Shown here piece after piece: positions 2,962-24,210 of a DNA stretch of 32,000 bases. The stretch spans positions 30,001 through 62,000 of the forward strand of contig PRDJ01000039.1 in assembly GCA_003345555.1 (NCBI GenBank), read 5' to 3'. The DNA is from Candidatus Thorarchaeota archaeon. GTDB lineage: Archaea > Asgardarchaeota > Thorarchaeia > Thorarchaeales > Thorarchaeaceae. The position numbers were made by a program, and so were the translations under genes. The notes under the pieces are model-generated. The model was not told the origin of the DNA. It was given only the letters and a program-made list of their open reading frames with translations, and made no database searches. Position 1 is the first letter of the stretch. Each line of letters opens with the position of its first letter.

Positions 2962-3316
2962 ATCATCGCATTCGAGGGTTCATGCGGAGAACTAGTCTTC
3001 CAGCGTGAGCTCGCGAGAAATAAAGCCACACTGAAGTCCTTTGGCCTTCATCGATAGTGGCCGTATGCTCTGTGCTCGGACACGATTGCACGAGACCGCC
3101 AGAATGACATATCAGTCCATCAGTCTGAGCCAAGATTGCTGCATTTGGAATCAGAAATGCTCTTGGGTGCAAGAAGCTCGTAAAAACAGGGTCCTGATTG
3201 TCCACGGTTGCTATTTGACCGTGCATCTTTAATAGGTGGAGCTTCAAGCCGCGGATGGCTTCCTTATCACTTCTCAAGGGAGGAATATCAACTTGGAAGA
3301 GGAAACACACGGCAGC

Positions 3317-4561
3317 ATGGCTAACAACCCGTTCGAAATCGCTCAGCACCAGATTGACATCGTCGCGAAGCGATTAAAGGTCGATCCGGGCATAATTGAA
3401 ATCATAAAACAACCCAAACGCGTCTTGGAAGTGGCAGTTCCCATAAGGATGGACAACGGTCAGTTGCGGGTCTTCCGCGGTTACAGAGTCCAACACAATG
3501 ATGCGCGCGGTCCCTTCAAAGGTGGCATCCGGTACGGTCCAGGAGTAAACATGGATGAGGTGAAGGCACTCGCTACTTGGATGTCAATGAAAACAGCAGT
3601 AATGGACATTCCATACGGTGGAGGAAAAGGCGGAATCATATGCAACCCCAAAGAGATGAGCAGCGCCGAGCTTGAGAGGCTGACCCGCAGATTCACCGCC
3701 GAGATTAGCTCTATCATCGGACCACTGAAGGATATCCCTGCTCCCGATGTGAACACGAACCCGCAGACGATGGCTTGGATAATGGATACCTATAGCGCTA
3801 CTATGGGCATCGCTGAGCCCGCAGTTGTGACAGGTAAGCCCATCTCCCTTGGGGGATCCCTCGGTCGAAACGAAGCCACTTCTCGTGGTGTTGTGATATG
3901 TGCCAGAGAGGCAGCCAAGGTGACCGGAGCAAAGCTTCAGGGCGCCACTGTGGCAGTAACTGGATACGGAAACGTTGGCTACAATTCGGCATGGCTTGCT
4001 CAAGAACTTCGCATGAGAGTTGTCGCTTGTAGCGACTCCCAAGGCGCTATCTACAATCCAGATGGTTTGGATGCTCGAAAAGTCGGTGATTTCAAGGCAA
4101 GGACTGGCACGGTCAAGGGTTACCCTGGATCGAAAGAGATTCCCATTGACAAAGTGGTCGAACTGGATGTCGATTTTCTGTTCCCCTGCGCTCTGGAAAA
4201 TGAGATTACATCGACTAACGTAGAATCAGTGAATGCGAAGATTATCATTGAGGGCGCAAATGGTCCCACCACACCCGAAGCTGATGAAGTTCTATACAGA
4301 AATGGAACCTTCCTTGTTCCTGACATCTTGGCCAATGCCGGAGGAGTGACGGTCTCTTACTTCGAATGGCTTCAGAACCTACGGCGCGAGTATTGGACTG
4401 AACAGGAAGTTAATGTTAAACTCGAGGCACGCATGGTGAAGGCATTTCATGAAGTCTATGACATTGCCAAGAAGGAAAACGTCCACATGAGAACGGCAGC
4501 ATTCATGCTGGCCGTGGGCAGAATAGCATCAGTTATGGAGACGCGTGGTCTGTTTCCATAG
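3317..4561 (+). CDS. gdhA: Glutamate dehydrogenase (414 aa from ATG 3317; alternative TTG start at 3293 with GGGAGGA 8 nt upstream)
   Basis: YRVQHNDARGPFKGGIRY, MSMKTA, YGGGKGG, DIPAPDVNT, GRNEATSRG, GYGNVG, EGANGP, PDILANAGGVTVSYFEW. ORF-track start 3236 is probably too early. Confidence 0.96.
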   Translation: MANNPFEIAQHQIDIVAKRLKVDPGIIEIIKQPKRVLEVAVPIRMDNGQLRVFRGYRVQHNDARGPFKGGIRYGPGVNMDEVKALATWMSMKTAVMDIPYGGGKGGIICNPKEMSSAELERLTRRFTAEISSIIGPLKDIPAPDVNTNPQTMAWIMDTYSATMGIAEPAVVTGKPISLGGSLGRNEATSRGVVICAREAAKVTGAKLQGATVAVTGYGNVGYNSAWLAQELRMRVVACSDSQGAIYNPDGLDARKVGDFKARTGTVKGYPGSKEIPIDKVVELDVDFLFPCALENEITSTNVESVNAKIIIEGANGPTTPEADEVLYRNGTFLVPDILANAGGVTVSYFEWLQNLRREYWTEQEVNVKLEARMVKAFHEVYDIAKKENVHMRTAAFMLAVGRIASVMETRGLFP

Positions 4562-4834: not shown

Positions 4835-6097
4835 CTATGGGAATATGCCTCTGAGCTCTATCGCCCTAGCGACTCTTTTTACCGCCAGTGCGAGCGCAGC
4901 AGTTCGAAGAGTCTTGATGTTGAACTCCATTGCAGTCTTATTGACTTCGTCAAATGACTTGACTAGGATGTCTCGAAGCGCCTGGCTAACCTGCTGCTCA
5001 CTCCAGAAGAAGTGCTGCAATCCCTGAACCCATTCGAAGTAGGACACAGTAACACCGCCTGCGTTTGCAAGTACGTCCGGAACTACTGTCGTTCCTTTTT
5101 CTGCCAGAATAGCATCGGCTTCCGGAGTAGTGGGACCGTTGGCCCCTTCAACTATCAGGGATGCCTGAATGGAATCCGCATTGTCCTCTGTAATTGCGTC
5201 GCCCATAGCGCATGGCGCAATAATGGGCACATCCAGTCCGAAGAGCTCTTTGTTGGTTATGGAGTCCGCACCTGGAAAACCTTCAACCGACCTCTTCGGG
5301 TGCTTTGCGGCATAGTCGGCCAGCTTTGGGATATCGAGCCCGTGTGGATCGTAGGCACCACCGAAGGCATCTGCTACAGCTACGACTTTGAAGCCGCCTT
5401 GATGAGCGAATCTGCAAAAGTAGCTGCCCACGTTGCCGAAGCCTTGCACAGCAAGCTGTAACCCCCTAGTGCTTCGACCTTTCTGTCTCAAGGCTTCCTC
5501 CATCACATAGAACAGCCCTCTTCCCGTCGCCTCAGTTCTGCCAACACTGCCACCGATCTCCACTGGTTTGCCTGTAACGACGCTAAGCTCGGTGTGACCA
5601 GTCAGCATGGAATATGTGTCCAGCATCCACGACATAACCTCTGGGTTCGTGTTCACGTCCGGAGCAGGTATGTCTGATTCTGGCCCAATCATGTTGATCA
5701 GACTGTAAGTGAATCTTCGAGTCAATTTCTTTAGCTCACCAGAGCTGAGCTTCCACGGATCGCACACGACACCGCCTTTGGCCCCGCCGAATGGAATATT
5801 GACCACTGCAGTCTTCCAAGTCATCAATGCGGCCAAGGCTTTCACTTCGTCGAGGCTAAGGTCGGGCGAATATCGGATTCCGCCCTTGCATGGTCCTCGG
5901 TGATGTGAGTGCTGTACCCTGTAACCTTCAAACATTTCAAGATGGCCGTCGTCCATGATAACTGGGAAATAGGTTATCAGGATCTTATCCGGCTTCTCGA
6001 GAATCTTGAGTATGTTCTCGTCTAGCTTAATCGCTTCAGCTGCAAGGTGCAGCTGAGTCAGAACGTTCTCCCAAGGATTAGATTCTGGATTTGACAT
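4835..6097 (-). CDS. gdhA: Glutamate dehydrogenase (420 aa, starting MSNPESNPWENV)
   Basis: YRVQHSHHRGPCKGGIRY, MTWKTA, FGGAKGG, DIPAPDVNT, GRTEATGRG, GFGNVG, EGANGP, PDVLANAGGVTVSYFEW. Start reassigned from 6241 to ATG 6097 because homology begins there and a TATA box lies just upstream. Confidence 0.96.
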   Translation of the reverse strand: MSNPESNPWENVLTQLHLAAEAIKLDENILKILEKPDKILITYFPVIMDDGHLEMFEGYRVQHSHHRGPCKGGIRYSPDLSLDEVKALAALMTWKTAVVNIPFGGAKGGVVCDPWKLSSGELKKLTRRFTYSLINMIGPESDIPAPDVNTNPEVMSWMLDTYSMLTGHTELSVVTGKPVEIGGSVGRTEATGRGLFYVMEEALRQKGRSTRGLQLAVQGFGNVGSYFCRFAHQGGFKVVAVADAFGGAYDPHGLDIPKLADYAAKHPKRSVEGFPGADSITNKELFGLDVPIIAPCAMGDAITEDNADSIQASLIVEGANGPTTPEADAILAEKGTTVVPDVLANAGGVTVSYFEWVQGLQHFFWSEQQVSQALRDILVKSFDEVNKTAMEFNIKTLRTAALALAVKRVARAIELRGIFP

Positions 6098-6115
6098 AGT
6101 CAACCGTCCTGAGGT

Positions 6116-6123
6116 CTTTATAG
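6116..6123 (-). promoter_or_regulatory. TATA box for the - strand gdhA (leaderless-type)
   Basis: CTATAAAG on the minus strand, centred ~23 nt upstream of ATG 6097. Confidence 0.6.
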
Positions 6124-6408
6124 TGGAACCCGTTCGATTTGGTATTAAACGCTTTCCTAGGTACTCCTCGCCATTCGCGTGGAAACACTGTGTACAGGAG
6201 ATGGCTTGAGTTTTGTAGAATCCTTCATGTGATATGCACACGCAGCTATCCCCCGTTCGTGCGAAATCTGTTCGACCCGGAAAGCGGTCTCAGCGCCCTG
6301 TGCCACTACCTGCCTTCGAATCGAACAACACTTCAAGGGATTCAGATTCTGCAAACAACAGACTGCAACAGAACTGCAATTCTAACGAGCCCGTGGATGC
6401 ATCCTCTT

Positions 6409-14747: not shown

Positions 14748-17345
14748 GTGAGTCGAACGGGGAAGCCAAAGGCTGTGAGTGGAAGTACTATCGAGGCTAT
14801 TCGAATGGCGTCCGCATCGGTTCTGGGTTCCACGACCGGACATGGCTATCCAATCGGTGATGCGGTCGGTGTGGGCAGCATGATGGAGGCCAACTCTGAA
14901 GCTGTTGCAGGAAATGTGGCACCACTGATTCTCTCGGTAAGCACACCTTTGAAGGCCTCTGAAGAGCTTGAACTTCTGTCTATGGAGTGGGACCTCGAAA
15001 GGACGCCGGGACCCGAGATACTGCCTGAACAGCTCGTTGTTGCTGGGGGGTATGCCCGGGGTGTTAGTTCACATGTTTCCATGCTAACTTGGGAAAAGGG
15101 CATTGCGGATCCCTTCAATATCGAAGAACGAGTCGAGCTAATCTCAAAGAAGCTTGCTGACCTAGAAGCGGCAACATCGGCAAGCGGGCTCGGGGTTGAA
15201 AACGAAGGTCTAGCCGTCCTCCGTAAGTTCTCGGGCAGATTGAATCGGACTCTGTTCCTGGATATGTTAGATCGTCAGTTTCAGGGGTCTTGGAGTACGC
15301 TCAGGATCAAGCCTGAGGATGTCGATGTAGAACTTGTGATTAGGCAGAGCTATCGGAAGGATTTCACGACTATGCCTCCCGGTGTGAACATCTCCGAACG
15401 CTCAAGTCCTGAATTCTTGCTTCCAGATGCTGATGATGCTGCGCTAACGGAGCACTTCAAACACCGAATCCTGAGCCCAAGCGCAGTAAGAGCGCTGTCC
15501 GTTCAAGTGCCCGAAATCGGAAGGGCGATTCTCAAGGAAATGAACAGATATGCTTACAGCGGCGAGGAGGCTGATATAGCTCGAGCGCTTACGGCGGCGC
15601 TCGTCCGGTTCTTGGGCCGGACCGATATGCGATTTGCCGAACTGGACAGCATAGCGAAGGAAGCTGTCGATTTCACAAGCACTGCAAAGAACGCGATTAG
15701 GATCCTTGGAGATGCCGTAGAGCAGCATGTTTCCTCTGGTACGAGTCTTCGTCTAGCCGAGCACAAAGAGCGTCTTGATACTGCAGTTGAATCCTTAATC
15801 GTTAAGTTACCCAGCCCCACTCGCGATGTAGTGACTTGGTTCCTGCATGAAATGACCTCTGCCATGATGAAGTCTGCCGGAGGTGACCTGCCGGGTGAGG
15901 TCGAGTTCAAGGCTTGGCAACTCAAGAGCGCGACGGGATATTTCCTCACCTACGCTAGGAAAGTCAGCGACTACTTTGCTGAGCAGCTCTATCGTTTCCT
16001 CATCGTTTCATTCGCACGGGCAGGCATCATGAATTCGCTTCACAGTCTTCATCAGGAAATGCTTGAGAAGGGTCTGAGCCCCACAGATCTGGTATTGTTT
16101 AATATGCTCTATGATGAGCTTCTGTCAAAGTTCAAGTCGGCTCTTGGCCGACGGGCGTGCGAAGGAACGACAGAGCGCAACCCAGGCCAGCTCATGGTAG
16201 CAATAGTCCAAGAAATCGTCGATGAATTCTCACGGGATAATCCGCGGAACATGGCTCAGTTTAGGAACATGGTTCAGGTCGCACGTTCCGAGATAGAGGC
16301 AAAACACAAGGTCGAGGAGCGAGATGGCGTACAGGGTCTCGACCGACTAGGAGAAGCACTGTTGGTCCGACTCTCTGACCTTGAGACTCTCGTCACACAA
16401 ACGCTTCAGGATATTGCAGATACCCTTCTCAGCAAGAGATTCATCACTCAACTCGCAGATTTGACGACAACAGAGCAATCCAAATTGTCGGCCGAATTCA
16501 TCAGACTAGTCGAGCTGCAGGAAGGTAAGTCGGCGCAATGGAAGAGCGAAGCAAGAAAGATAGTAAACGATGCTCTGCAAGGAGCCGCCATGGGAAAGGG
16601 CACAGCCCCGAGGTTGCTTACGCTAACACAGAATCTACACGAGGCCATCCGTACCGGCCCTTCCACCGAGTCAGTCCTACAACGCGTGAAATCTGAAGCC
16701 GAGAGGCTCCAAGCAGAATACGAGCGCGAAGTCGAGGAGTGGGAGATAGCGTGTTCTCGGATAGAATCAGAGAACGTGCGTATTCGGGATGAGAATGAAA
16801 CAAGAGAAGGTCTCCTGAAGCAGGCAAGCGCTGACTATGCTCGCGAGACGGCTCAATATGAGCAATTGAAACAGGCATATGACCCGTCTACCGTCCCAGG
16901 TTCTCCTCCTGAACCGCCTGAAACCCTCGAGCAGCGTGTTCTTAGAATCGAGCGGGCGCATCCCGTACAGATGCCCAAGTCGATGCCCACGAAACCAGAG
17001 GCGCCTGAAGAGCTTCTCGTTGCTGATGAGCTGCGCGATACGATTGCCGCCAACATCGAGACAGCAAGCAGAGACGAAAAATCATTACAGAGTATTCTCA
17101 TAGATCGACTGAATTCCATGCGCGATCAACCGGCGAACCAGATGGGGGATCAGGTCGTCAATATCGCTGACGGATTTCATGAGTACCTATTGGAGTCAAC
17201 AATACGAAGCATCGGAAAGCTGCTGCCGCGTGCTTCACGGGTCTATCTTAAATCGCCTGAAGAACCCGACCTGATTTATCTCGTGAGCTACGAATACAAG
17301 AAGGACGAGATGATGGTTCAAATCGGCAGCAATTTCCTGAGGTGA
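14748..17345 (+). CDS. Large hypothetical protein (865 aa): N-terminal alpha/beta domain, long helical region, C-terminal coiled coil and Pro-rich segments
   Basis: 2.6-kb ORF; AGGAGG RBS (14735-14740) 7 nt before GTG; no catalytic motif recognised. Confidence 0.85.
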   Translation: MSRTGKPKAVSGSTIEAIRMASASVLGSTTGHGYPIGDAVGVGSMMEANSEAVAGNVAPLILSVSTPLKASEELELLSMEWDLERTPGPEILPEQLVVAGGYARGVSSHVSMLTWEKGIADPFNIEERVELISKKLADLEAATSASGLGVENEGLAVLRKFSGRLNRTLFLDMLDRQFQGSWSTLRIKPEDVDVELVIRQSYRKDFTTMPPGVNISERSSPEFLLPDADDAALTEHFKHRILSPSAVRALSVQVPEIGRAILKEMNRYAYSGEEADIARALTAALVRFLGRTDMRFAELDSIAKEAVDFTSTAKNAIRILGDAVEQHVSSGTSLRLAEHKERLDTAVESLIVKLPSPTRDVVTWFLHEMTSAMMKSAGGDLPGEVEFKAWQLKSATGYFLTYARKVSDYFAEQLYRFLIVSFARAGIMNSLHSLHQEMLEKGLSPTDLVLFNMLYDELLSKFKSALGRRACEGTTERNPGQLMVAIVQEIVDEFSRDNPRNMAQFRNMVQVARSEIEAKHKVEERDGVQGLDRLGEALLVRLSDLETLVTQTLQDIADTLLSKRFITQLADLTTTEQSKLSAEFIRLVELQEGKSAQWKSEARKIVNDALQGAAMGKGTAPRLLTLTQNLHEAIRTGPSTESVLQRVKSEAERLQAEYEREVEEWEIACSRIESENVRIRDENETREGLLKQASADYARETAQYEQLKQAYDPSTVPGSPPEPPETLEQRVLRIERAHPVQMPKSMPTKPEAPEELLVADELRDTIAANIETASRDEKSLQSILIDRLNSMRDQPANQMGDQVVNIADGFHEYLLESTIRSIGKLLPRASRVYLKSPEEPDLIYLVSYEYKKDEMMVQIGSNFLR

Positions 17346-17349
17346 TTCA

Positions 17350-19794
17350 ATGTCAAGCTCTTGGATACTCAGAACTCGTCAGATGAGTGAAGCTGGAAAG
17401 GAAATCCTTCTGAGAGAAGCGCTCGCTTCTCATATGAGGAACACACGCGATCGACAGTTTGTCGCAGAGCTCCTGAAACAGAGATTGCCTCTGGAAGACA
17501 TTGTTTGCCTCTTTGCAGCTTATTACCTCACGAGCTATCAAGACGTGAGGCTGAGGGGACATGAATCCTTTGAGAACGTTCCCGGCGAACAGAAGGATCG
17601 GGTAGCGGCTGAGTCGCGGAGACTTCTGGAACTGGAGATACGCGGGCTCTTGGGTAACAAACAGAAAGAAGAGATGGACGTTGCAAGACTCATCAGCGAA
17701 TTCATAGTTGAATTCTGTGATGAAGTCGTGAGACCTGACTCGTCAAACCCTCAGGCAGGGATTGAAGTCACTAAGCTGCTGCAATCGTATGTCAAGAGAA
17801 TTCCTAATGACTACTCGCCAAACCATCATATCGATTTCATCAATGGTGTTACAGGCTGGGGGTCTATATGGAGAGACGAGATCTATGAGAAGGCATCGGG
17901 GCTCAAAGAGTCATCCCTGACGCTCAGAGAGGAGCTGCTTAAGGAGCGTGAGCCGGAGATACCCGAAACAGCTGTTCTTCTTAGGTGCATTACACGTTTG
18001 CTGGGACATACTACGTACCTTCAGGGCCCGTTGAGCCCCGGTGATATCGATAATAGCAAGTGGGAGGAGATTGCCCGAGCAGTAACCCAGAATATCGCCA
18101 AGAGCGGACAGGGGCTGCAAGCGCTGAGGAAAGCCCATCAGATTCGTCTAGAAGCTCTTGATGCCATCGAGAGGGAATTTCAAACCCCGACTTCCCTTGA
18201 GGAATTCGAGAATCGAGTCGGCGATTTTCTGGCGAAGCGAATTGCCGAGGAGATTGCAGCTAATCCAAATGACGCGTACTTTCTCTTGGGGCACTTGCTT
18301 GGCCTCAACCCAAATGATGTCAAAGCGGCACTCAGACCGAAAGGAATCGCCAGCCCAACTGACCTTGTGTCTGGGTTCGGCGCACTGACCGCGGGAGCAC
18401 CTGAGGATGTTGGGCGCACCCCAGCGGAAAAGGGTGATTTGGAGGACATGGACCGCTCGCTGAAAACATTGGACAAGATCGAGCAGACCCTTGAGAAGTC
18501 TGTGAAGGGTATGCTTCGTTCCCGCGGTCTCAAGTCTTCCGAACTCGACAAGATATCCCTCCAACTTCTCACCAAAGAGCGAAGCAGCCTCATAGGAATC
18601 GAGATTGTTGTATTGGAACAGTTGAAGAAGATGGTACGTGTTCCTCCTCCGCAAGAGATTGCCCGATTAATCAAACTCCGCGAGGACGTACAGAAAGGTG
18701 CCCTGACTTCTTCGGGTGTCTCCTCAGGACCACAAGTCAGCCGCCAGCTGAAGCAAGATGAGACAATCCGTTCTCTTAAGCTGGATATAGTCTGGCACCT
18801 GATGATAGGCCTGTTTACGAACCTGACTCGTGTAGTAGAAATGTACGTGCGTTCCAAGCAGGACATTCTTCGTATCAAAGCGCTTCTCAAAAGCATCTAC
18901 GAGAAGACCGAGAGTGAATTGCAGGTCTACCGAGAAGAGATACTTTTCGACTTTGCCATCGTACGAATCCAAGAGATCAAGTGTATTTGCCCTGAGTTGG
19001 ACACCCTTTCCCTTTGGGCTTGGTTCCATGCGCGGCTGTCAGGCGAGGACATGGATTCTGCTAAGTCTGAGTTCACTGGTTCGTCAAGTTCTGTGTTTGA
19101 GGGCGTGGTCAAAGCCCCTCTCAGAATAGCTGGTCTTGAATTTGATAACTACGCTATAGCTTTCGACGTGATGAACAGATTCCTAGTGAGGGAGAAAAGG
19201 GCAAAGCAGGCTAAGGAAGAGGTTGCGGTAGAGACGAAGCTTGAAGAACAGAAAATGATAGAAACCAAACGGAAGGAGCTCGACGTCCTCACATTTATCT
19301 ATACTAAGGCTCACACCGTATTCAAGGCCACGGGCAGGACCGGTCCCAAAGGCTTGGAATGGACATCAACTGATAGTTCCAAATGTGCGAATCTCCTGAG
19401 TCTGTACTTGAGAACCAATCGGGGCCGAGCCATATGCACGGCATGTGGGTCAATGGCTAAGGAGGGAACGTGTCCTAATCATGGTTCAGAGCTTGTAAAT
19501 GCGAGTTCCGACTTGGACAACTTGGCGGTGTTCATAATGCAGGGAATCTCCGAAATCAAGACTGGCCTTATCGGGCCGTCTGCTGAATCCATGTCGTGGG
19601 AGAAAGCGAAGGCCGTCGTGCAGAAAGAAACTAGCTTGCTCAAGCAGAAAGGCAAGCTTGACAAGAAGGCGAACTTGAAGCTTCTCTTGCCGGGTGAGAT
19701 AGACTATGTGGTCGGCCCAGCAATGGCGGCCGTCGTGGCGCAGTACTTCAATGAGTCACTTCAGTATGCCGCTCGTCGGGCACGCTTGGCATGA
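17350..19794 (+). CDS. Large hypothetical helical protein (814 aa) with a C-terminal CxxC...CxxH zinc-binding motif
   Basis: 2.4-kb ORF; GAGGTGA RBS (17339-17345) overlaps the upstream stop; CTACGSMAKEGTCPNHG. Confidence 0.85.
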   Translation: MSSSWILRTRQMSEAGKEILLREALASHMRNTRDRQFVAELLKQRLPLEDIVCLFAAYYLTSYQDVRLRGHESFENVPGEQKDRVAAESRRLLELEIRGLLGNKQKEEMDVARLISEFIVEFCDEVVRPDSSNPQAGIEVTKLLQSYVKRIPNDYSPNHHIDFINGVTGWGSIWRDEIYEKASGLKESSLTLREELLKEREPEIPETAVLLRCITRLLGHTTYLQGPLSPGDIDNSKWEEIARAVTQNIAKSGQGLQALRKAHQIRLEALDAIEREFQTPTSLEEFENRVGDFLAKRIAEEIAANPNDAYFLLGHLLGLNPNDVKAALRPKGIASPTDLVSGFGALTAGAPEDVGRTPAEKGDLEDMDRSLKTLDKIEQTLEKSVKGMLRSRGLKSSELDKISLQLLTKERSSLIGIEIVVLEQLKKMVRVPPPQEIARLIKLREDVQKGALTSSGVSSGPQVSRQLKQDETIRSLKLDIVWHLMIGLFTNLTRVVEMYVRSKQDILRIKALLKSIYEKTESELQVYREEILFDFAIVRIQEIKCICPELDTLSLWAWFHARLSGEDMDSAKSEFTGSSSSVFEGVVKAPLRIAGLEFDNYAIAFDVMNRFLVREKRAKQAKEEVAVETKLEEQKMIETKRKELDVLTFIYTKAHTVFKATGRTGPKGLEWTSTDSSKCANLLSLYLRTNRGRAICTACGSMAKEGTCPNHGSELVNASSDLDNLAVFIMQGISEIKTGLIGPSAESMSWEKAKAVVQKETSLLKQKGKLDKKANLKLLLPGEIDYVVGPAMAAVVAQYFNESLQYAARRARLA

Positions 19795-20345: not shown

Positions 20346-21749
20346 ATGCCTAAGAAGTTCGTGCCAAGAGGGATAATGCCAGCCCTCATAACGCCATTCG
20401 CGAAAGATGGCGAGATAATCGAACAGAGCTTTCGCGAGATTATCGATTACACAATTAGCAAAGGAGCCGCCGGAGTCGTACCCGCTGGCACAACGGGCGA
20501 GTTCGTTTACATGAATATGGACGAGCGCAAGAAGCTTCTGAGTCTGACAACGGAATGCGTGAATGGTCGCGTTCCGATTATTGCAGGCACAGGTCAGAGC
20601 AGCACTGAAGCAGCTACTGAGCTGACGAAGTACGCGGCAGATATTGGATGCGATGCAGCTTTGATCGTTTCTCCCTTCTATTTGAAACCGACTGACAAGG
20701 GCTACTACGAGCACTATGCCACTATCGCAAGAAAGAGTGACCTGCCTGTCATAATGTATAATATTCCTCAGATGGGCGGTATGGGTGTCCTCCCTGTTAG
20801 CGTTGTGGAAGACCTAGCCGAACTGGACAATATCGTAGGCATCAAGGACAGCAGTGGTAACATAACCTACATGCTGGAACTACTGCAGAAGCTAAAAGGC
20901 CGCATTTCTGTGATAAATGGCAATGACGAGATCTTCTTCTCTGCAGTGACTGCGGGTGTGAACGCCGCAATCATGGCCTCAGCGAACTTGATGCCTCATC
21001 TTTGGAATGATCTTTTGAAGAAAGTCCGCAAAGGTGACATTGATGGAGCCCTCAAGCTTCAGCTCTCGATGCAGACTCTGACTCGAATTGTGACAAGGTA
21101 TGGAGGTGCTCCGCCAGTCAGGGCAGCACTGAAGATGATGGGAATCGATTCGGGTAAAGCACGAATGCCACTTAACACAGGTGGGACGTTGACTCCCGAA
21201 CTTAAGGAGGAAATAAGAGTCGAGCTGGAGAAGCTAGGGCTGATTGGGGGTTCAAAGCATGTTGGTCCAGCGAAAGAAGTCGACATTAATGGTGTCCTAC
21301 TAGAGGCCGGATTGAGTGCCGAACAGCAACAAGCCCTCAAGGTCGGACGCGGATCGAGTCAAGCTTGTACCGCCAGCGTCGTTTGTGGATCCAAGACCGG
21401 TCCCCTGGGATCAGCGTTTGTCCGATTGCTGACGACTCCGCGAATTGGACGCGAGGCACTATCAGTGATTCTTGAACCGAACTTGGCTGTCAGACCTTCC
21501 AGCCTAATGTTGCCGGGCAGAAAGATCAGCTCAATGCGTCAGGCGTCAGTGTTCTACGGTCCAGTGCAGTCCGGCGCTGCTAGAGCTGTTGCAGGTCACC
21601 TAGCTGCTGGCAAGATATCTCCTGACGCGGTTCAAAACAATGTCATGGTGATGGTGATCGATGTGGACTTGGATACAGTCGACAGAAGAGCAGTCACTGC
21701 CGCTACGGAGGTAGCGGTTTCCGCGGCTCTCAGTCAGATTTGGAGGTGA
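20346..21749 (+). CDS. DapA/NAL-family class I aldolase (Schiff-base Lys intact) fused to a degenerate Fae domain (467 aa)
   Basis: GIMPALITPF, AGTTGEF, SPFY, MYNIP, VGIKDSSG (AAG 20844-20846); C-terminal EPNLAVRP and RQASVFYGPVQSGAARAV match Fae, but there is no His in the segment matching AHIDL. Confidence 0.9.
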   Translation: MPKKFVPRGIMPALITPFAKDGEIIEQSFREIIDYTISKGAAGVVPAGTTGEFVYMNMDERKKLLSLTTECVNGRVPIIAGTGQSSTEAATELTKYAADIGCDAALIVSPFYLKPTDKGYYEHYATIARKSDLPVIMYNIPQMGGMGVLPVSVVEDLAELDNIVGIKDSSGNITYMLELLQKLKGRISVINGNDEIFFSAVTAGVNAAIMASANLMPHLWNDLLKKVRKGDIDGALKLQLSMQTLTRIVTRYGGAPPVRAALKMMGIDSGKARMPLNTGGTLTPELKEEIRVELEKLGLIGGSKHVGPAKEVDINGVLLEAGLSAEQQQALKVGRGSSQACTASVVCGSKTGPLGSAFVRLLTTPRIGREALSVILEPNLAVRPSSLMLPGRKISSMRQASVFYGPVQSGAARAVAGHLAAGKISPDAVQNNVMVMVIDVDLDTVDRRAVTAATEVAVSAALSQIWR

Positions 21750-21755
21750 GGAAAA

Positions 21756-23234
21756 ACGCCTGAAGGATCTTGGCGATTCAAAGGTGTGTACGCCGGACTA
21801 GTCACACCGTTTGGTGAGAACGGCGTCAATGAGGCACAATACCGCAATCTGATTGAGCATGTTATCAAGGCAGGGGCAAACGGCATTGTTCCCTGCGCAT
21901 CACTCGGCGAATTCACAAGTATGTCATTTGAGGAGAAAGCTGAAGCTATTCGAGTCGCATGCGACGCTGCGAAGGGACGGGTGCCGGTGCTTGCGGGTGC
22001 ATGCGCGGCTTACACTGCCGACGTCGTCAAGCTGTATCTAAAGGCTGCCGAGTACGGAGCTTCGGGGGCGTTGGTAGTCTCTCCGTATTTCATGAAGCCT
22101 TCCACAAAGGAAATCTATGAACACTATGAGAAGGTTGCGAACTCAGCTGGTCTCCCAGTATTCCTGTATAATTGTCCACAGTTCACTGGCGTGAACCTCG
22201 ACTGGTGGCTGATCGAAGGTCTGCGCGAGATCAAGGGCATTATTGGGCTCAGCGATGCGAGCGGCAACTTGGTCAATGTCTCGCAGATACTCGCTCGTCG
22301 GCCAGAGGACTTTCAAGTTGTTGTTGGCCATGATGAAGTCGTTCTGCCGAGTATGGCAGCAGGCTGCGATGGAGCTATCCTAGCAACTGCAAATATCTTC
22401 CCCGACAGATATGTAAGAATGGCGATTGCTCTAAGTCAAGGCGATCTCAAAGAGGCTAGACTCATTCAGCGTAGCGTTCAGAGAACCGCGAGAATCGTTG
22501 TCAACAAGGGCGGTCCTCTCGCTGTCAAGGCGGCCCTGAATATGATGGGCATCCCCGTCGGTTCTGCTCGAATGCCTCTCCTACAGGGCGATGTTCTGGG
22601 CTATGATGACTTAGATGAACTCAGGACACAGCTGGAAGACCTCCAGCTGATGCCTAGAGGGTCAGTCACCTACAGGGCGCATGGTCGATCCGTTGTTACG
22701 GATGCATATCCGAAGGCTGTGGGAATGAGCAAGGACATCATCGATGACCTCACCCTCCTTCATGGAGAAGCTTTGTGTGGGGAGGGATTGGAAGTTGCTC
22801 ATGTCGATCTGGTTGTGGGACTCAAGGATGGGCCTATGCAGGCTGCCTTGACCAACGCAGGTATCAAGACCGATGGCTTCCATATGTCCAACATCATCAA
22901 GGACCTTCGACCTACGACCGTATTTGCGCCCACGGTGACAATCACCGACGAACATCACAGCAGGCTCGTGTTCGAGTTCGCTCAGAAGGCCGTTGCTGAC
23001 GCTGTGACAAGGACAATCACAGACCGGATGATTCCCGAGGAGCTTGTGCCAGACCTAGTGATTGCTGTGAAAGTGTTCGTCCATCCCAATGCCAACAACC
23101 CAAGACGGGTACACATGAACAATTTCCGAGCCACGAGGTTTGCGATAAGGCGAGCTCTGGAAGGTCGACAATCTGTAGAGGAGGTAGTTGCCCGAAAGGA
23201 CTCAGCTCGTCATCCATATGGCTACAATCCATGA
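21756..23234 (+). CDS. fae: DapA-like pseudo-aldolase (Schiff-base Lys to Ser) fused to an intact-looking Fae domain (492 aa from ACG 21756; 482 aa from GTG 21786)
   Basis: GVYAGLVTPF, ASLGEF, LYNCP, IIGLSDASG (AGC 22251-22253 at the Lys position); Fae signature GEALCGEGLEVAHVDL, AQKAVADAV, VFVHP, ATRFAIRRAL, C-terminal HPY. Confidence 0.9.
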   Translation, partial: TPEGSWRFKGVYAGLVTPFGENGVNEAQYRNLIEHVIKAGANGIVPCASLGEFTSMSFEEKAEAIRVACDAAKGRVPVLAGACAAYTADVVKLYLKAAEYGASGALVVSPYFMKPSTKEIYEHYEKVANSAGLPVFLYNCPQFTGVNLDWWLIEGLREIKGIIGLSDASGNLVNVSQILARRPEDFQVVVGHDEVVLPSMAAGCDGAILATANIFPDRYVRMAIALSQGDLKEARLIQRSVQRTARIVVNKGGPLAVKAALNMMGIPVGSARMPLLQGDVLGYDDLDELRTQLEDLQLMPRGSVTYRAHGRSVVTDAYPKAVGMSKDIIDDLTLLHGEALCGEGLEVAHVDLVVGLKDGPMQAALTNAGIKTDGFHMSNIIKDLRPTTVFAPTVTITDEHHSRLVFEFAQKAVADAVTRTITDRMIPEELVPDLVIAVKVFVHPNANNPRRVHMNNFRATRFAIRRALEGRQSVEEVVARKDSARHPYGYNP

Positions 23235-23331
23235 GCCTACCTCATAGATGTTGATATAAGCCAGAAACGCTCGGGAAGATGTAAGCCGGCCATACATCGC
23301 CACCATCTCCAATCTACGGCAGGCGAAACGG

Positions 23332-23541
23332 GTGTCGGGACAATACGGTCAGTCGCTAAAGGATCTACTTGAGCGAATGCATATTTCTGACTCAGAGAAG
23401 CTTGTTGCGGAAGGTGAGACCTTAGTGATAGACACGAAAGCAGAACGAATTCTCCTCTCGCGAAAGGATGGCGTTCTGTCAATCAGGTCTCTTCCTTCAC
23501 CGGGATCCGGCAGTATTGCTGGAAAGGGTCACAACACTTAG
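23332..23541 (+). CDS. Possible small hypothetical protein (at least 69 aa)
   Basis: Protein-like composition; TATA-like GATATAAG near 23253-23260; frame open back to 23260 without a canonical start. Confidence 0.35.
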   Translation: MSGQYGQSLKDLLERMHISDSEKLVAEGETLVIDTKAERILLSRKDGVLSIRSLPSPGSGSIAGKGHNT

Positions 23542-23560
23542 TTGGCCGATTGTTAAGCCA

Positions 23561-23585
23561 AGTTGTCACCGAAAGTGTGACAATT
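23561..23585 (+). other. GAAA-tetraloop hairpin, possible terminator element
   Basis: TTGTCAC (23563-23569)-C-GAAA-G-T-GTGACAA (23577-23583); pyrimidine-rich tract ~35 nt downstream. Confidence 0.45.
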
Positions 23586-23668
23586 CGAGAGGCCTTGGCC
23601 ATCACAGTTGGAATTGGCTCTTCTTTGCCCTTCTTCGCTCTCCGGGAGGTTTCTGTGCCTGTTTGGGG

Positions 23669-23676
23669 TATTTATA
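23669..23676 (+). promoter_or_regulatory. TATA box not followed by a credible ORF; candidate ncRNA promoter
   Basis: TATTTATA; a start ~23698-23701 would precede the structured region. Confidence 0.45.
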
Positions 23677-23698
23677 CTTACAGAGCCAGTATTGAGTG

Positions 23699-24003
23699 AG
23701 CCAAGCAGATTTGTCTTAGCGTGCTAGCCCAGATTCCGTTGGAGCTCGACAATATGGTTGAAACCCGTTCTGCCAAAGTGGGCCTCCATCAAGGGGACGA
23801 GACGGCATGCTTGGCTGGGCCCACAAGGGGGACCAAGACGTTGGCGATCGACACCGCCGAAATCAACAGTTGCGTATCTATCTCGAAGGTTCTCCACATC
23901 ACCTCTTCGAGGGATGGCGGACCTTGTTCGGTTTGTCCTGTGAAAGTGTCTCATAGATAGCAACCTGAGAAAGCGGCCGTTTGGTATGGAACGGGTTTCA
24001 ACC
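23699..24003 (+). ncRNA. Candidate structured non-coding RNA of unknown family (strand inferred from the TATA box)
   Basis: Perfect 15-bp inverted repeat GGTTGAAACCCGTTC (23756-23770) / GAACGGGTTTCAACC (23989-24003) enclosing several nested stems; no credible ORF. Confidence 0.5.
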
Positions 24004-24210
24004 TAACCATTCTGCAGGTCCGGCAGGTCATAAACAACTCTGGTGGCAAGTCTCAGCCTGCTCTTGGATCGTCATTGCTCGGTGCTCAGATAGGGGTAAC
24101 CGCCTCATCGACCCGCCGTTCTCCACTTGTCTCGCGCTCACCTTATGAAACTGCCTTTTTCCGTCGCAATCTTCTTAGCGTGCCTAGACTGGTCCCTCAC
24201 TGATGCAGCG

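Follow-up and report, generated by a model that had tools for sequence, protein, structure and literature searches.

A DapA-like aldolase joined to formaldehyde-activating enzyme in Thorarchaeota: very probably not a dihydrodipicolinate synthase, possibly a formaldehyde-linked pyruvate aldolase

Introduction

In Fae-Hps, the formaldehyde-activating enzyme (Fae) is fused to an aldolase that takes formaldehyde as co-substrate (PMC5241800). This fusion, in which the aldolase is a TIM barrel, is found in methanogens and in most Asgard archaea. Here, we describe a different union of Fae with an aldolase, encoded by two tandem genes in a 32,000-nucleotide stretch of DNA from a Candidatus Thorarchaeota archaeon (GenBank assembly GCA_003345555.1, contig PRDJ01000039.1, positions 30,001 to 62,000 of the forward strand; hereafter the window). 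The window is part of the contig that we call C39, in a 2.28-Mb genome that is 93.5% complete, belongs to the Asgard archaea (Thorarchaeia-type) and has closest protein relatives carrying Thorarchaeota labels. Each of the two genes couples an N-terminal domain of the dihydrodipicolinate synthase (DHDPS) family to a C-terminal Fae domain. An earlier note on this DNA had proposed that the active aldolase of the pair is probably not a DHDPS, and that an aldol reaction between formaldehyde and pyruvate or 2-oxoisovalerate would fit the fusion. A literature search on DHDPS-Fae or DapA-Fae fusions and on Fae in Thorarchaeota found no description of such an architecture.

Fae itself (1Y5Y/1Y60) is a homopentamer, with the cofactor held between subunits. 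On the aldolase side, the best match by hidden Markov model (HMM) and by the sequences of solved structures is DHDPS/DapA (TIGR00674, e.g. E. coli 1DHP), at 36-41% identity. In E. coli DapA, Arg138 at the active-site entrance binds aspartate semialdehyde, Lys161 is the Schiff-base residue, and Thr44, Tyr107 and Tyr133 make up the proton relay (PMC4977564). The product of pyruvate and formaldehyde, 4-hydroxy-2-oxobutanoate (HOB), has been described as a non-native metabolite made by promiscuous aldolases, and the HOB aldolase activities of the synthetic homoserine cycle (E. coli RhmA and others) catalyse the very reaction that we consider below (PMC8879981). These are side reactions of sugar-acid aldolases with no coupling to a one-carbon (C1) carrier, whereas the fusion would be a dedicated, pterin-coupled natural enzyme. 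A net hydroxymethyl transfer between a methylene-pterin and a carbon nucleophile, as proposed here, is also catalysed by PanB and serine hydroxymethyltransferase (SHMT). Their folds and mechanisms are nevertheless unrelated to those of the fusion (PanB is metal-dependent and SHMT uses pyridoxal phosphate), and each has a single active site rather than two coupled domains.

The fusion resembles Fae-Hps, which most Asgard families outside Thorarchaeia possess, in joining Fae to a TIM-barrel aldolase, and differs from it in several ways. The domain order is reversed, with the aldolase at the N terminus. The aldolase is of the Schiff-base, pyruvate type, whereas Hps has the orotidine monophosphate decarboxylase fold. 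In addition, the gene has here been duplicated into paralogues with complementary losses, in a group (Thorarchaeia) that lacks Fae-Hps.

We propose that the N-terminal domain of the upstream protein (copy 1) is a DapA-derived class I aldolase, with Lys167 as its Schiff-base residue, that would act on a 2-oxoacid, most likely pyruvate, and would not condense aspartate semialdehyde. Copy 1 would act in a hetero-oligomer with the downstream protein (copy 2). There, the Fae domain of copy 2 would provide the only Fae site of the genome, the Fae-like domain of copy 1 supplying its missing parts across the subunit interface. The chemistry would most likely be the reversible condensation of pyruvate with formaldehyde to HOB, with the Fae site handing over or taking up formaldehyde as methylene-pterin (methylene-tetrahydromethanopterin, methylene-H4MPT, or the organism’s equivalent). 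The net result would be a reversible two-domain hydroxymethyl transfer between methylene-pterin and pyruvate, analogous to Fae-Hps, SHMT and PanB. To this statement as a whole, in which a pyruvate aldolase linked to formaldehyde cooperates with a divided Fae site, we give a probability of roughly 0.4, and we consider no other single explanation better. Within it, pyruvate as donor, formaldehyde as acceptor, the pterin that takes part, the way the flux runs and the heteromer itself are all inferred.

The two fusion genes and their active sites

The two genes lie in tandem on the same strand, as open reading frames (ORFs) of 467 and 482 amino acids, each with PF00701 (DHDPS) at the N terminus and PF08714 (Fae) at the C terminus (Table 1). 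PF00701 scores 260.7 bits in copy 1 (residues 8-278) and 226.3 bits in copy 2, and residues 8-299 of copy 1 align to solved DHDPS chains with E = 1e-51. Both proteins belong to the PF00701 superfamily (domain over threshold, catalytic Lys and Tyr), with the catalytic set whole in copy 1 only. The PF08714 match of copy 1 (83.4 bits) covers only positions 8-135 of the 159 in the profile, and its TIGR03126 score of 72 bits falls under the cut-off of 118, leaving the Fae match incomplete. Copy 2 has a full-length Fae, with 120.2 bits for PF08714 (profile positions 2-158 of 159) and 132.3 bits for TIGR03126 (positions 4-159 of 160). Some 120 orthologues of copy 1 were found, at 58-85% identity and mostly under Thorarchaeota labels.

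Table 1. Coordinates and sequence features of the fusion genes (window positions) and of two conserved genes that adjoin the fusion in other Asgard families (locus or genome:contig positions).
Feature	Position	Strand	Basis or remark
Copy 1 (a-type paralogue), 467 aa: intact DapA-derived class I aldolase + degenerate Fae-like domain	20346..21749	+	Pfam/NCBIfam profiles
Copy 1 aldolase domain, with GTTGEF (residues 48-53), Tyr138 and Lys167	20346..21245	+	alignment to solved DHDPS chains
Copy 1 Met143, at the position of E. coli DapA Arg138	20772..20774	+	alignment
Copy 1 Lys167 in GIKDSSG, equivalent of DapA Schiff-base Lys161	20844..20846	+	alignment; invariant in a-type alignment A3
Copy 1 Fae-like domain: AHxDL (His22/Asp24), Phe119 and C-terminal ARHPF tail gone; EPNLAVRP loop and YGPVQ kept	21348..21746	+	alignment
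Copy 2 (b-type paralogue), 482 aa from GTG: predicted catalytically dead aldolase-like domain + intact Fae	21786..23234	+	profiles, alignment
Copy 2 Phe133, at the Arg138 position	22182..22184	+	alignment
Copy 2 Ser156 in GLSDASG, in place of the Schiff-base Lys; ASLGEF (residues 38-43) in place of GTTGEF	22251..22253	+	alignment
Copy 2 Fae domain, with EVAHVDLVVG, FVHP and C-terminal ARHPYG (His339 22800-22802, Asp341 22806-22808)	22764..23219	+	alignment
X428, ~428 aa	L011:2837-4123, L016:2635-3909, L034-L036, L042-L043; own genome G000:C71:2194-3474		conserved unknown protein
X312, ~312 aa	L014:2349-3287, L012:2039-3058, L037:4304-5251, L040:7929-8864, L013:1628-2563		conserved unknown protein

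The Schiff-base lysine is present in copy 1 and, as a serine stands in its place, absent from copy 2. The ‘active aldolase’ of which the earlier note spoke must consequently be copy 1, and for this genome the expression is apt. The proton-relay residues are likewise present in copy 1, as GTTGEF, YN and F-Y at positions 106/107; copy 2 reads ASLGEF at the first of these. Copy 1 shares GTTGEF, Tyr138, Lys167 and a tyrosine at 106/107 with nearly all members of the family, whose signature is GTTGEF, YNIPQ[CVLMF]TG, xKDSSG and G[HW]DE. The 106/107 pair reads YY, FY or YF across the family, which makes the assignment of position 107 ambiguous in the alignment. Tyr107 was considered as a marker of trans-complementation between the copies and dropped, as the pair shows no clean pattern.

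The key departure from DHDPS lies at the position of Arg138. Copy 1 reads YNIPQMGG and copy 2 YNCPQFTG, exactly as the earlier note had given them, in a gap-free alignment in which E. coli DapA has YNVPSRTG and solved DHDPS chains have YNVPGRTG; the role that it ascribed to the arginine also agrees with the literature (PMC4977564). The arginine expected of a DHDPS is replaced by methionine in copy 1 and by phenylalanine in copy 2. In a survey of 201 Asgard genomes, sorted into families that we label f1, f3 and so on (f1 being Thorarchaeia), all 23 aligned fusion proteins, from ten families, have C, V, L, M or F here, so the loss of the arginine is neither chance nor sequencing error. The position is non-basic also in fusions on a Korarchaeota-like contig and on soda-lake contigs, and one metagenomic member has an arginine one residue before it. 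Among the 63 nearest unfused relatives, 39 keep Arg138. From the sequences, a hydrophobic residue at this position fits an acceptor that carries no carboxylate.

The aldolase is very probably not a DHDPS

Both copies pass the TIGR00674 dapA equivalog marginally (222.3 bits for copy 1 and 221.9 for copy 2, against a cut-off of 206), which accounts for their automatic annotation as DapA. They share with DapA the TIM-barrel class I aldolase fold, GTTGE, Tyr133 and the Schiff-base Lys161. Besides Met or Phe (C, V or L elsewhere) for Arg138, the fusion differs in reading KDSSG for the KEATG of DapA and G[HW]DE for its GDDA, in adding a C-terminal Fae domain, and in belonging to a genome without a diaminopimelate (DAP) pathway.

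This last point can be put in numbers. We searched relatives at least 90-92% complete, together with 14 control genomes, in most or all of which the same searches recover dapB, asd and homoserine dehydrogenase (Hom). The dapB gene, archaeal asd and Hom were not found in the 93.5%-complete genome under study. Among the relatives, dapB exceeds its cut-off in 0/40 (at least 90% complete), compared with 11/14 controls, asd is found in 8/26 and Hom in 1/26. That is, neither the supply of aspartate semialdehyde by asd nor the use of the product by dapB is in place. The earlier note had suggested a check for a separate canonical dapA in the genome. None is present: of the three DHDPS-family genes, two are the fusions and the third, on contig C12, is KdgD-like.

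With no substrate supply, no next enzyme and no substrate-binding residue, DapA function is very unlikely, and we hold it to be highly probable, from sequence comparison, that the fusion aldolase is not a DHDPS. Here the earlier note is strongly supported, by the family-wide loss of Arg138 as well as by the missing dapB and asd. The converse, a true 4-hydroxy-tetrahydrodipicolinate synthase that binds aspartate semialdehyde in another way, could call on the scores just above the TIGR00674 cut-off, on DHDPS as the best solved-structure match and on a gene for an ArgE/DapE-family deacylase downstream, here and in f12. Yet it would have to dispense with Arg138 throughout the fusion family, with dapB in this genome and 40 relatives, with asd and hence with its substrate, and, in copy 2, with the Schiff-base lysine. 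We rate its chances as very small.

This matters beyond the locus. In the databases, hundreds of family members go by the name ‘4-hydroxy-tetrahydrodipicolinate synthase’, and a small number by ‘formaldehyde-activating enzyme’. Where an organism has no DAP pathway, the name DapA is almost certainly mistaken, and metabolic reconstructions of Asgard archaea are skewed by it.

Distribution and origin of the fusion

Fae domains occur in 137 of the 201 Asgard genomes, and most families other than Thorarchaeia have the classical Fae-Hps. DHDPS-Fae fusions of ~470-500 amino acids are found in ten families, as a single gene in f9, f12, f13, f16, f17, f22 and f25 and as a tandem pair of an a-type and a b-type paralogue (copy 1 and copy 2 here) in f1 (46/48 genomes), f8 and f20. 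Such pairs are also present on a Korarchaeota-like contig and on metagenomic contigs. In Thorarchaeia the fusion pair is the only form, with no Fae-Hps.

A search of 1.8 billion representative sequences returned ~15 clusters of fusions at 230-477 bits; below a gap in score came unfused proteins of ~295 amino acids, at no more than 211 bits and 36-37% identity. In a maximum-likelihood tree the fusions form one clade with 97/99 support, separate from unfused DapA-like proteins. Given this clade, and the pattern of residues at position 138 in fused and unfused proteins, the aldolase domain appears to derive from DapA-like stock and to have lost Arg138 at or after its joining to Fae. A 757-residue ‘fusion’ (P0139), probably an artefact and with a transglutaminase-like second domain, yielded no Rosetta-stone clue.

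A duplicated enzyme with a split Fae site

All a-type proteins group together in the tree (98/99), as do all b-types (99/99), so the pair goes back to one old duplication. The a gene always lies ahead of the b gene. The two types have lost different parts of Fae. The a-type has lost EVAH-x-DL (His22/Asp24 of Methylorubrum extorquens Fae), the FVHP segment (Phe119) and the C-terminal ARHPF tail, and keeps the LEPNLxxRP loop and YGPxQ. The b-type keeps the first three, has a deletion of 4-6 residues in the LEPNLxxRP loop and has lost YGPxQ. Single-copy fusions keep every one of these motifs. In the present pair, EVAH-x-DL reads EVAHVDLVVG in copy 2, next to EVAHIDLIIG in 1Y5Y, and is lost in copy 1 (QACTASVVCG); in the M. 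extorquens enzyme, with a structure published in 2005, His22 and Asp24 of this motif belong to the active site. The Fae domain of copy 2 aligns to residues 8-168 of that enzyme (1Y5Y/1Y60) with E = 1.7e-22 and shares EVAH-x-DL, FxH and the C-terminal RHP with it. Identity is only ~30%, however, and here the site is seemingly split over two paralogous chains and the domain tethered to an aldolase.

The complementary losses fit a ring of alternating a and b chains that share in composite sites. A model of the complex of the two Fae domains scores 0.89, against 0.66 for the best control; 58/80 solved complexes and 2/110 mismatched pairs reach that mark. Runs of the model agree in at least 90% of contacts, and the predicted local distance difference test (pLDDT) of the partner is at least 82. 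On the two sides of the modelled interface lie the very motifs that each chain has retained: His339, Asp341 and residues 474-478 from copy 2, residues 375-383 and 405-409 from copy 1. As the Fae homopentamer is already solved (1Y5Y), the pass may reflect likeness to it only.

On the aldolase side, the b-type barrel of most Thorarchaeia retains the lysine (GMKDSSG). The changes of Lys to Ser and of TT to SL in copy 2 occur only here and in the sister genome G135 (85% identical), and not in G138 and G105 of the same genus. In comparison with G135, the dead barrel of copy 2 is 85% identical and the dead Fae domain of copy 1 82%, with dN/dS of ~0.03 and ~0.04, respectively, at saturated dS; judged by these alignments, both dead domains are under strong purifying selection. 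Whatever the substrate, the pair appears to illustrate what becomes of a bifunctional homomeric enzyme after gene duplication: two paralogues, each half dead and each dependent on the other, with the final loss of the Schiff-base lysine caught inside one genus.

The start of copy 2 merits a separate remark. Its frame is open from the stop codon of copy 1 (window 21742-21788), and homology to the family begins ~10 codons before the GTG at 21786. There, WRFKGVYAGLVTPF upstream of the GTG matches DFRFRGVFPALVTPF of the orthologues, with no ATG, GTG or TTG available, and an ACG at 21756 sits 6 nt past GGAGGTGA. On these grounds the real start is probably upstream of the GTG, and the ACG may be it.

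Formaldehyde as the partner of pyruvate

With aspartate semialdehyde set aside, formaldehyde is a plausible partner by analogy, given a fusion conserved across Asgard classes and the precedent of Fae-Hps. If the aldehyde is formaldehyde, the fusion would be the first natural enzyme dedicated to a C-C bond formation for which synthetic methylotrophy has only promiscuous aldolases (PMC8879981), and the archaeal C1 pool would gain a new way in or out. A more specific version would be a natural pterin-coupled pyruvate hydroxymethyltransferase in Asgard and some Korarchaeota-like archaea, built as one chain or as two complementary paralogues, that interconverts pyruvate plus methylene-H4MPT and HOB. 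It would link C1 units of the Wood-Ljungdahl pathway directly to C4 or homoserine-type metabolism in lineages without Hom, and would be the natural counterpart of a step of the synthetic ‘homoserine cycle’. We regard this version as rather doubtful.

The distribution of Hom gives a suggestive, sequence-based anticorrelation with the fusion. Hom is mostly missing from fusion families (3/48 genomes in f1, 0/14 in f12, 0/3 in f13, 0/2 in f20 and 0/3 in f25) and mostly present in fusion-free ones (4/4 in f3, 18/24 in f5, 4/4 in f7, 5/6 in f18 and 10/12 in f21; likewise f4, f14 and f24). Within f9, which is mixed, a hand count gave 8 genomes with and 22 without Hom among carriers of the fusion, and 11 with and ~4 without among the others.

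Several observations weigh against the formaldehyde-linked aldolase proposed above. HOB aldolase activity is credited to the fusion solely on the strength of its conserved Fae partner and the loss of Arg138, which is guilt by fusion. The Hom pattern has exceptions (f8, f16 and f17 carry both, in addition to the mixed f9) and is confounded by common descent as well as by an overall loss of biosynthesis. ThrB exceeds its cut-off in 0/26 relatives, and MetX and O-acetylhomoserine sulfhydrylase (MetY) were not found in five Thorarchaeia; of the homoserine-linked genes only ThrC-like ones are universal. The link to homoserine is weak in consequence, and the idea of a homoserine biosynthesis was abandoned because no pathway closes once ThrB, MetX and MetY are missing alongside Hom. 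No producer or consumer of HOB or homoserine is evident among these genes, and the conserved genes upstream of the fusion in other families (X428 and X312, below), modelled as TIM barrels, give no clue to a pathway. A soda-lake sediment contig (L047) bears a tandem pair (231-1658 and 1655-2788) in which both copies lack the Schiff-base lysine and the downstream one keeps EAAHVDLLIG. It looks like an independent and more complete loss of aldolase chemistry, which would make that chemistry dispensable in at least one lineage.

The C1 carrier is a further difficulty. Of the H4MPT-pathway genes to which the earlier note looked, Mch is present in the genome, and searches of it for Ftr, Mtd, RFAP synthase and a true Mer gave nothing (the best Mer match, with 194 bits, is a paralogue). 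Ftr occurs in 30/40 relatives and Mer in 15/26, and none of five Thorarchaeia yielded RFAP synthase, even where Ftr and Mer are present. The pterin that would partner Fae in this species is accordingly uncertain. As an observation apart, Ftr is missing from genera g1, g4 and g5 and present in 13/16 genera.

Alternative readings

The proposal has to be weighed against readings that keep the aldolase and change one of its substrates. Copy 1 could be a pyruvate aldolase for some other small uncharged aldehyde (acetaldehyde, glycolaldehyde, glyceraldehyde or lactaldehyde), with Fae as an independent formaldehyde scavenger or an aid to assembly. The DHDPS/NAL family includes many such aldolases, the weaker NCBIfam matches of the fusion are to HpaI-like, NanA and archaeal KDG aldolase models, and its KDSSG and G[HW]DE motifs, apart from differing from DapA, resemble K-x-S/T and GxDE of sugar-acid lyases. 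A hydrophobic residue 138 excludes a carboxylate without specifying formaldehyde, and H4MPT-linked enzymes are sparse in the genome. Against this, the reading offers no reason for a fusion kept across Asgard classes and a second phylum and leaves the strong constraint on both dead domains unexplained, and the best HMM and structure-sequence matches are to DapA rather than to sugar-acid aldolases; we find it somewhat unlikely, though it is the strongest of the rivals. Far less probable still is ketopantoate formation from 2-oxoisovalerate and formaldehyde or methylene-pterin, by a PanB analogue suited to an H4MPT-using archaeon, which was the other candidate of the earlier note. An enamine of a 2-oxoacid could carry out such chemistry, a true branched-chain aminotransferase (BCAT; IlvE type II, 450 bits) is encoded 12 kb upstream, and PanB was not found in this particular assembly. 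PanB (PF02548) is nevertheless present in 45/48 Thorarchaeia, two genomes of the same genus included, and in 159/201 Asgard genomes, mostly alongside the fusion, so that there is no gap to fill; the idea of a PanB analogue was rejected on this co-occurrence, in which no anticorrelation can be seen. BCAT is no conserved neighbour of the fusion outside Thorarchaeia. In addition, DHDPS-family enzymes are not known to take a branched donor.

The DapA-like domains could also be mainly a scaffold. That is, the Fae ring would be the real enzyme and the barrel would serve assembly or regulation, its aldolase residues surviving through inertia or because they have some minor role. Lys, Thr44 and Thr45 are gone from copy 2 here and in G135, yet conservation of its barrel stands at 85% and dN/dS at ~0.03; the Fae motif persists on the soda-lake contig whose copies read LADSSG and ILDATG at the lysine; and the representative P0132 combines a Lys-to-Ala change with a Fae domain of 112 bits. 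What speaks for catalysis is that the lysine, Tyr133 and GTTGEF are invariant in all aligned a-types from assembled genomes and in all single-copy forms, from the Asgard families to the Korarchaeota-like contig; across such distant lineages a pure scaffold would not be expected to keep them. The exchange of Arg138 for a small set of hydrophobic residues, moreover, looks like a retuned active site. We consider a scaffold improbable.

Neighbouring genes

The gene directly upstream of the fusion in families other than Thorarchaeia is one of two, X428 or X312, both conserved. X428, at 59-69% identity between Asgard families, directly precedes the single-copy fusion in f9, f22 and f25; in Thorarchaeia it lies away from the fusion, and in G114 it adjoins a 500-residue ThrC-like gene. 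It has no Pfam, NCBIfam or PDB sequence match. Its AF2 model (pLDDT 59) is a low-confidence TIM barrel with a best VIA Z of 8.3, in a range common for generic TIM barrels, and Foldseek returned nothing at E of 0.001 or lower, the top rows being MetF at E = 0.01. X312, at 62-77% identity, adjoins the fusion in f8, f12, f13, f17 and f20; this genome lacks it. Like X428, it is without Pfam, NCBIfam and PDB sequence matches; its Atlas features point to U32-like clusters, and its AF2 model (pLDDT 66) resembles class II fructose- or tagatose-bisphosphate aldolases with a TM-score of no better than ~0.5. Judged by the models, both are generic TIM barrels with weak fold matches, and no function could be assigned to either.

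Downstream of the fusion, the ArgE/DapE-family deacylase gene is found in Thorarchaeia and f12. Here, ~890 bases separate it from copy 2 (23235-24126), with no ORF of 80 or more amino acids on the + strand. An Rfam scan at the gathering threshold and a tRNA scan gave no match in the window, this interval included.

The remaining genes of interest lie upstream of the pair. Three genes of the ELFV family, which are glutamate dehydrogenase (GDH)-like, occur within 6 kb (397-1623 on the - strand, 3236-4561 on the + strand and 4835-6241 on the - strand). Their scores of 200, 575 and 504 bits are under the NCBIfam GDH equivalog cut-off of 750, and the gene at 397-1623 is very divergent. The segment 7202-10746 encodes type II IlvE, a ferredoxin and an aldehyde:ferredoxin oxidoreductase. 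The GDH-like, BCAT and oxidoreductase genes are syntenic within Thorarchaeia and unlinked to the fusion elsewhere; BCAT and GDH were named in the earlier note as possible suppliers of 2-oxoacids. Between these genes and the fusion pair, positions 14748-19794 encode coupled proteins of 865 and 814 amino acids, which have no Pfam domain and are syntenic upstream of the pair in other Thorarchaeia.

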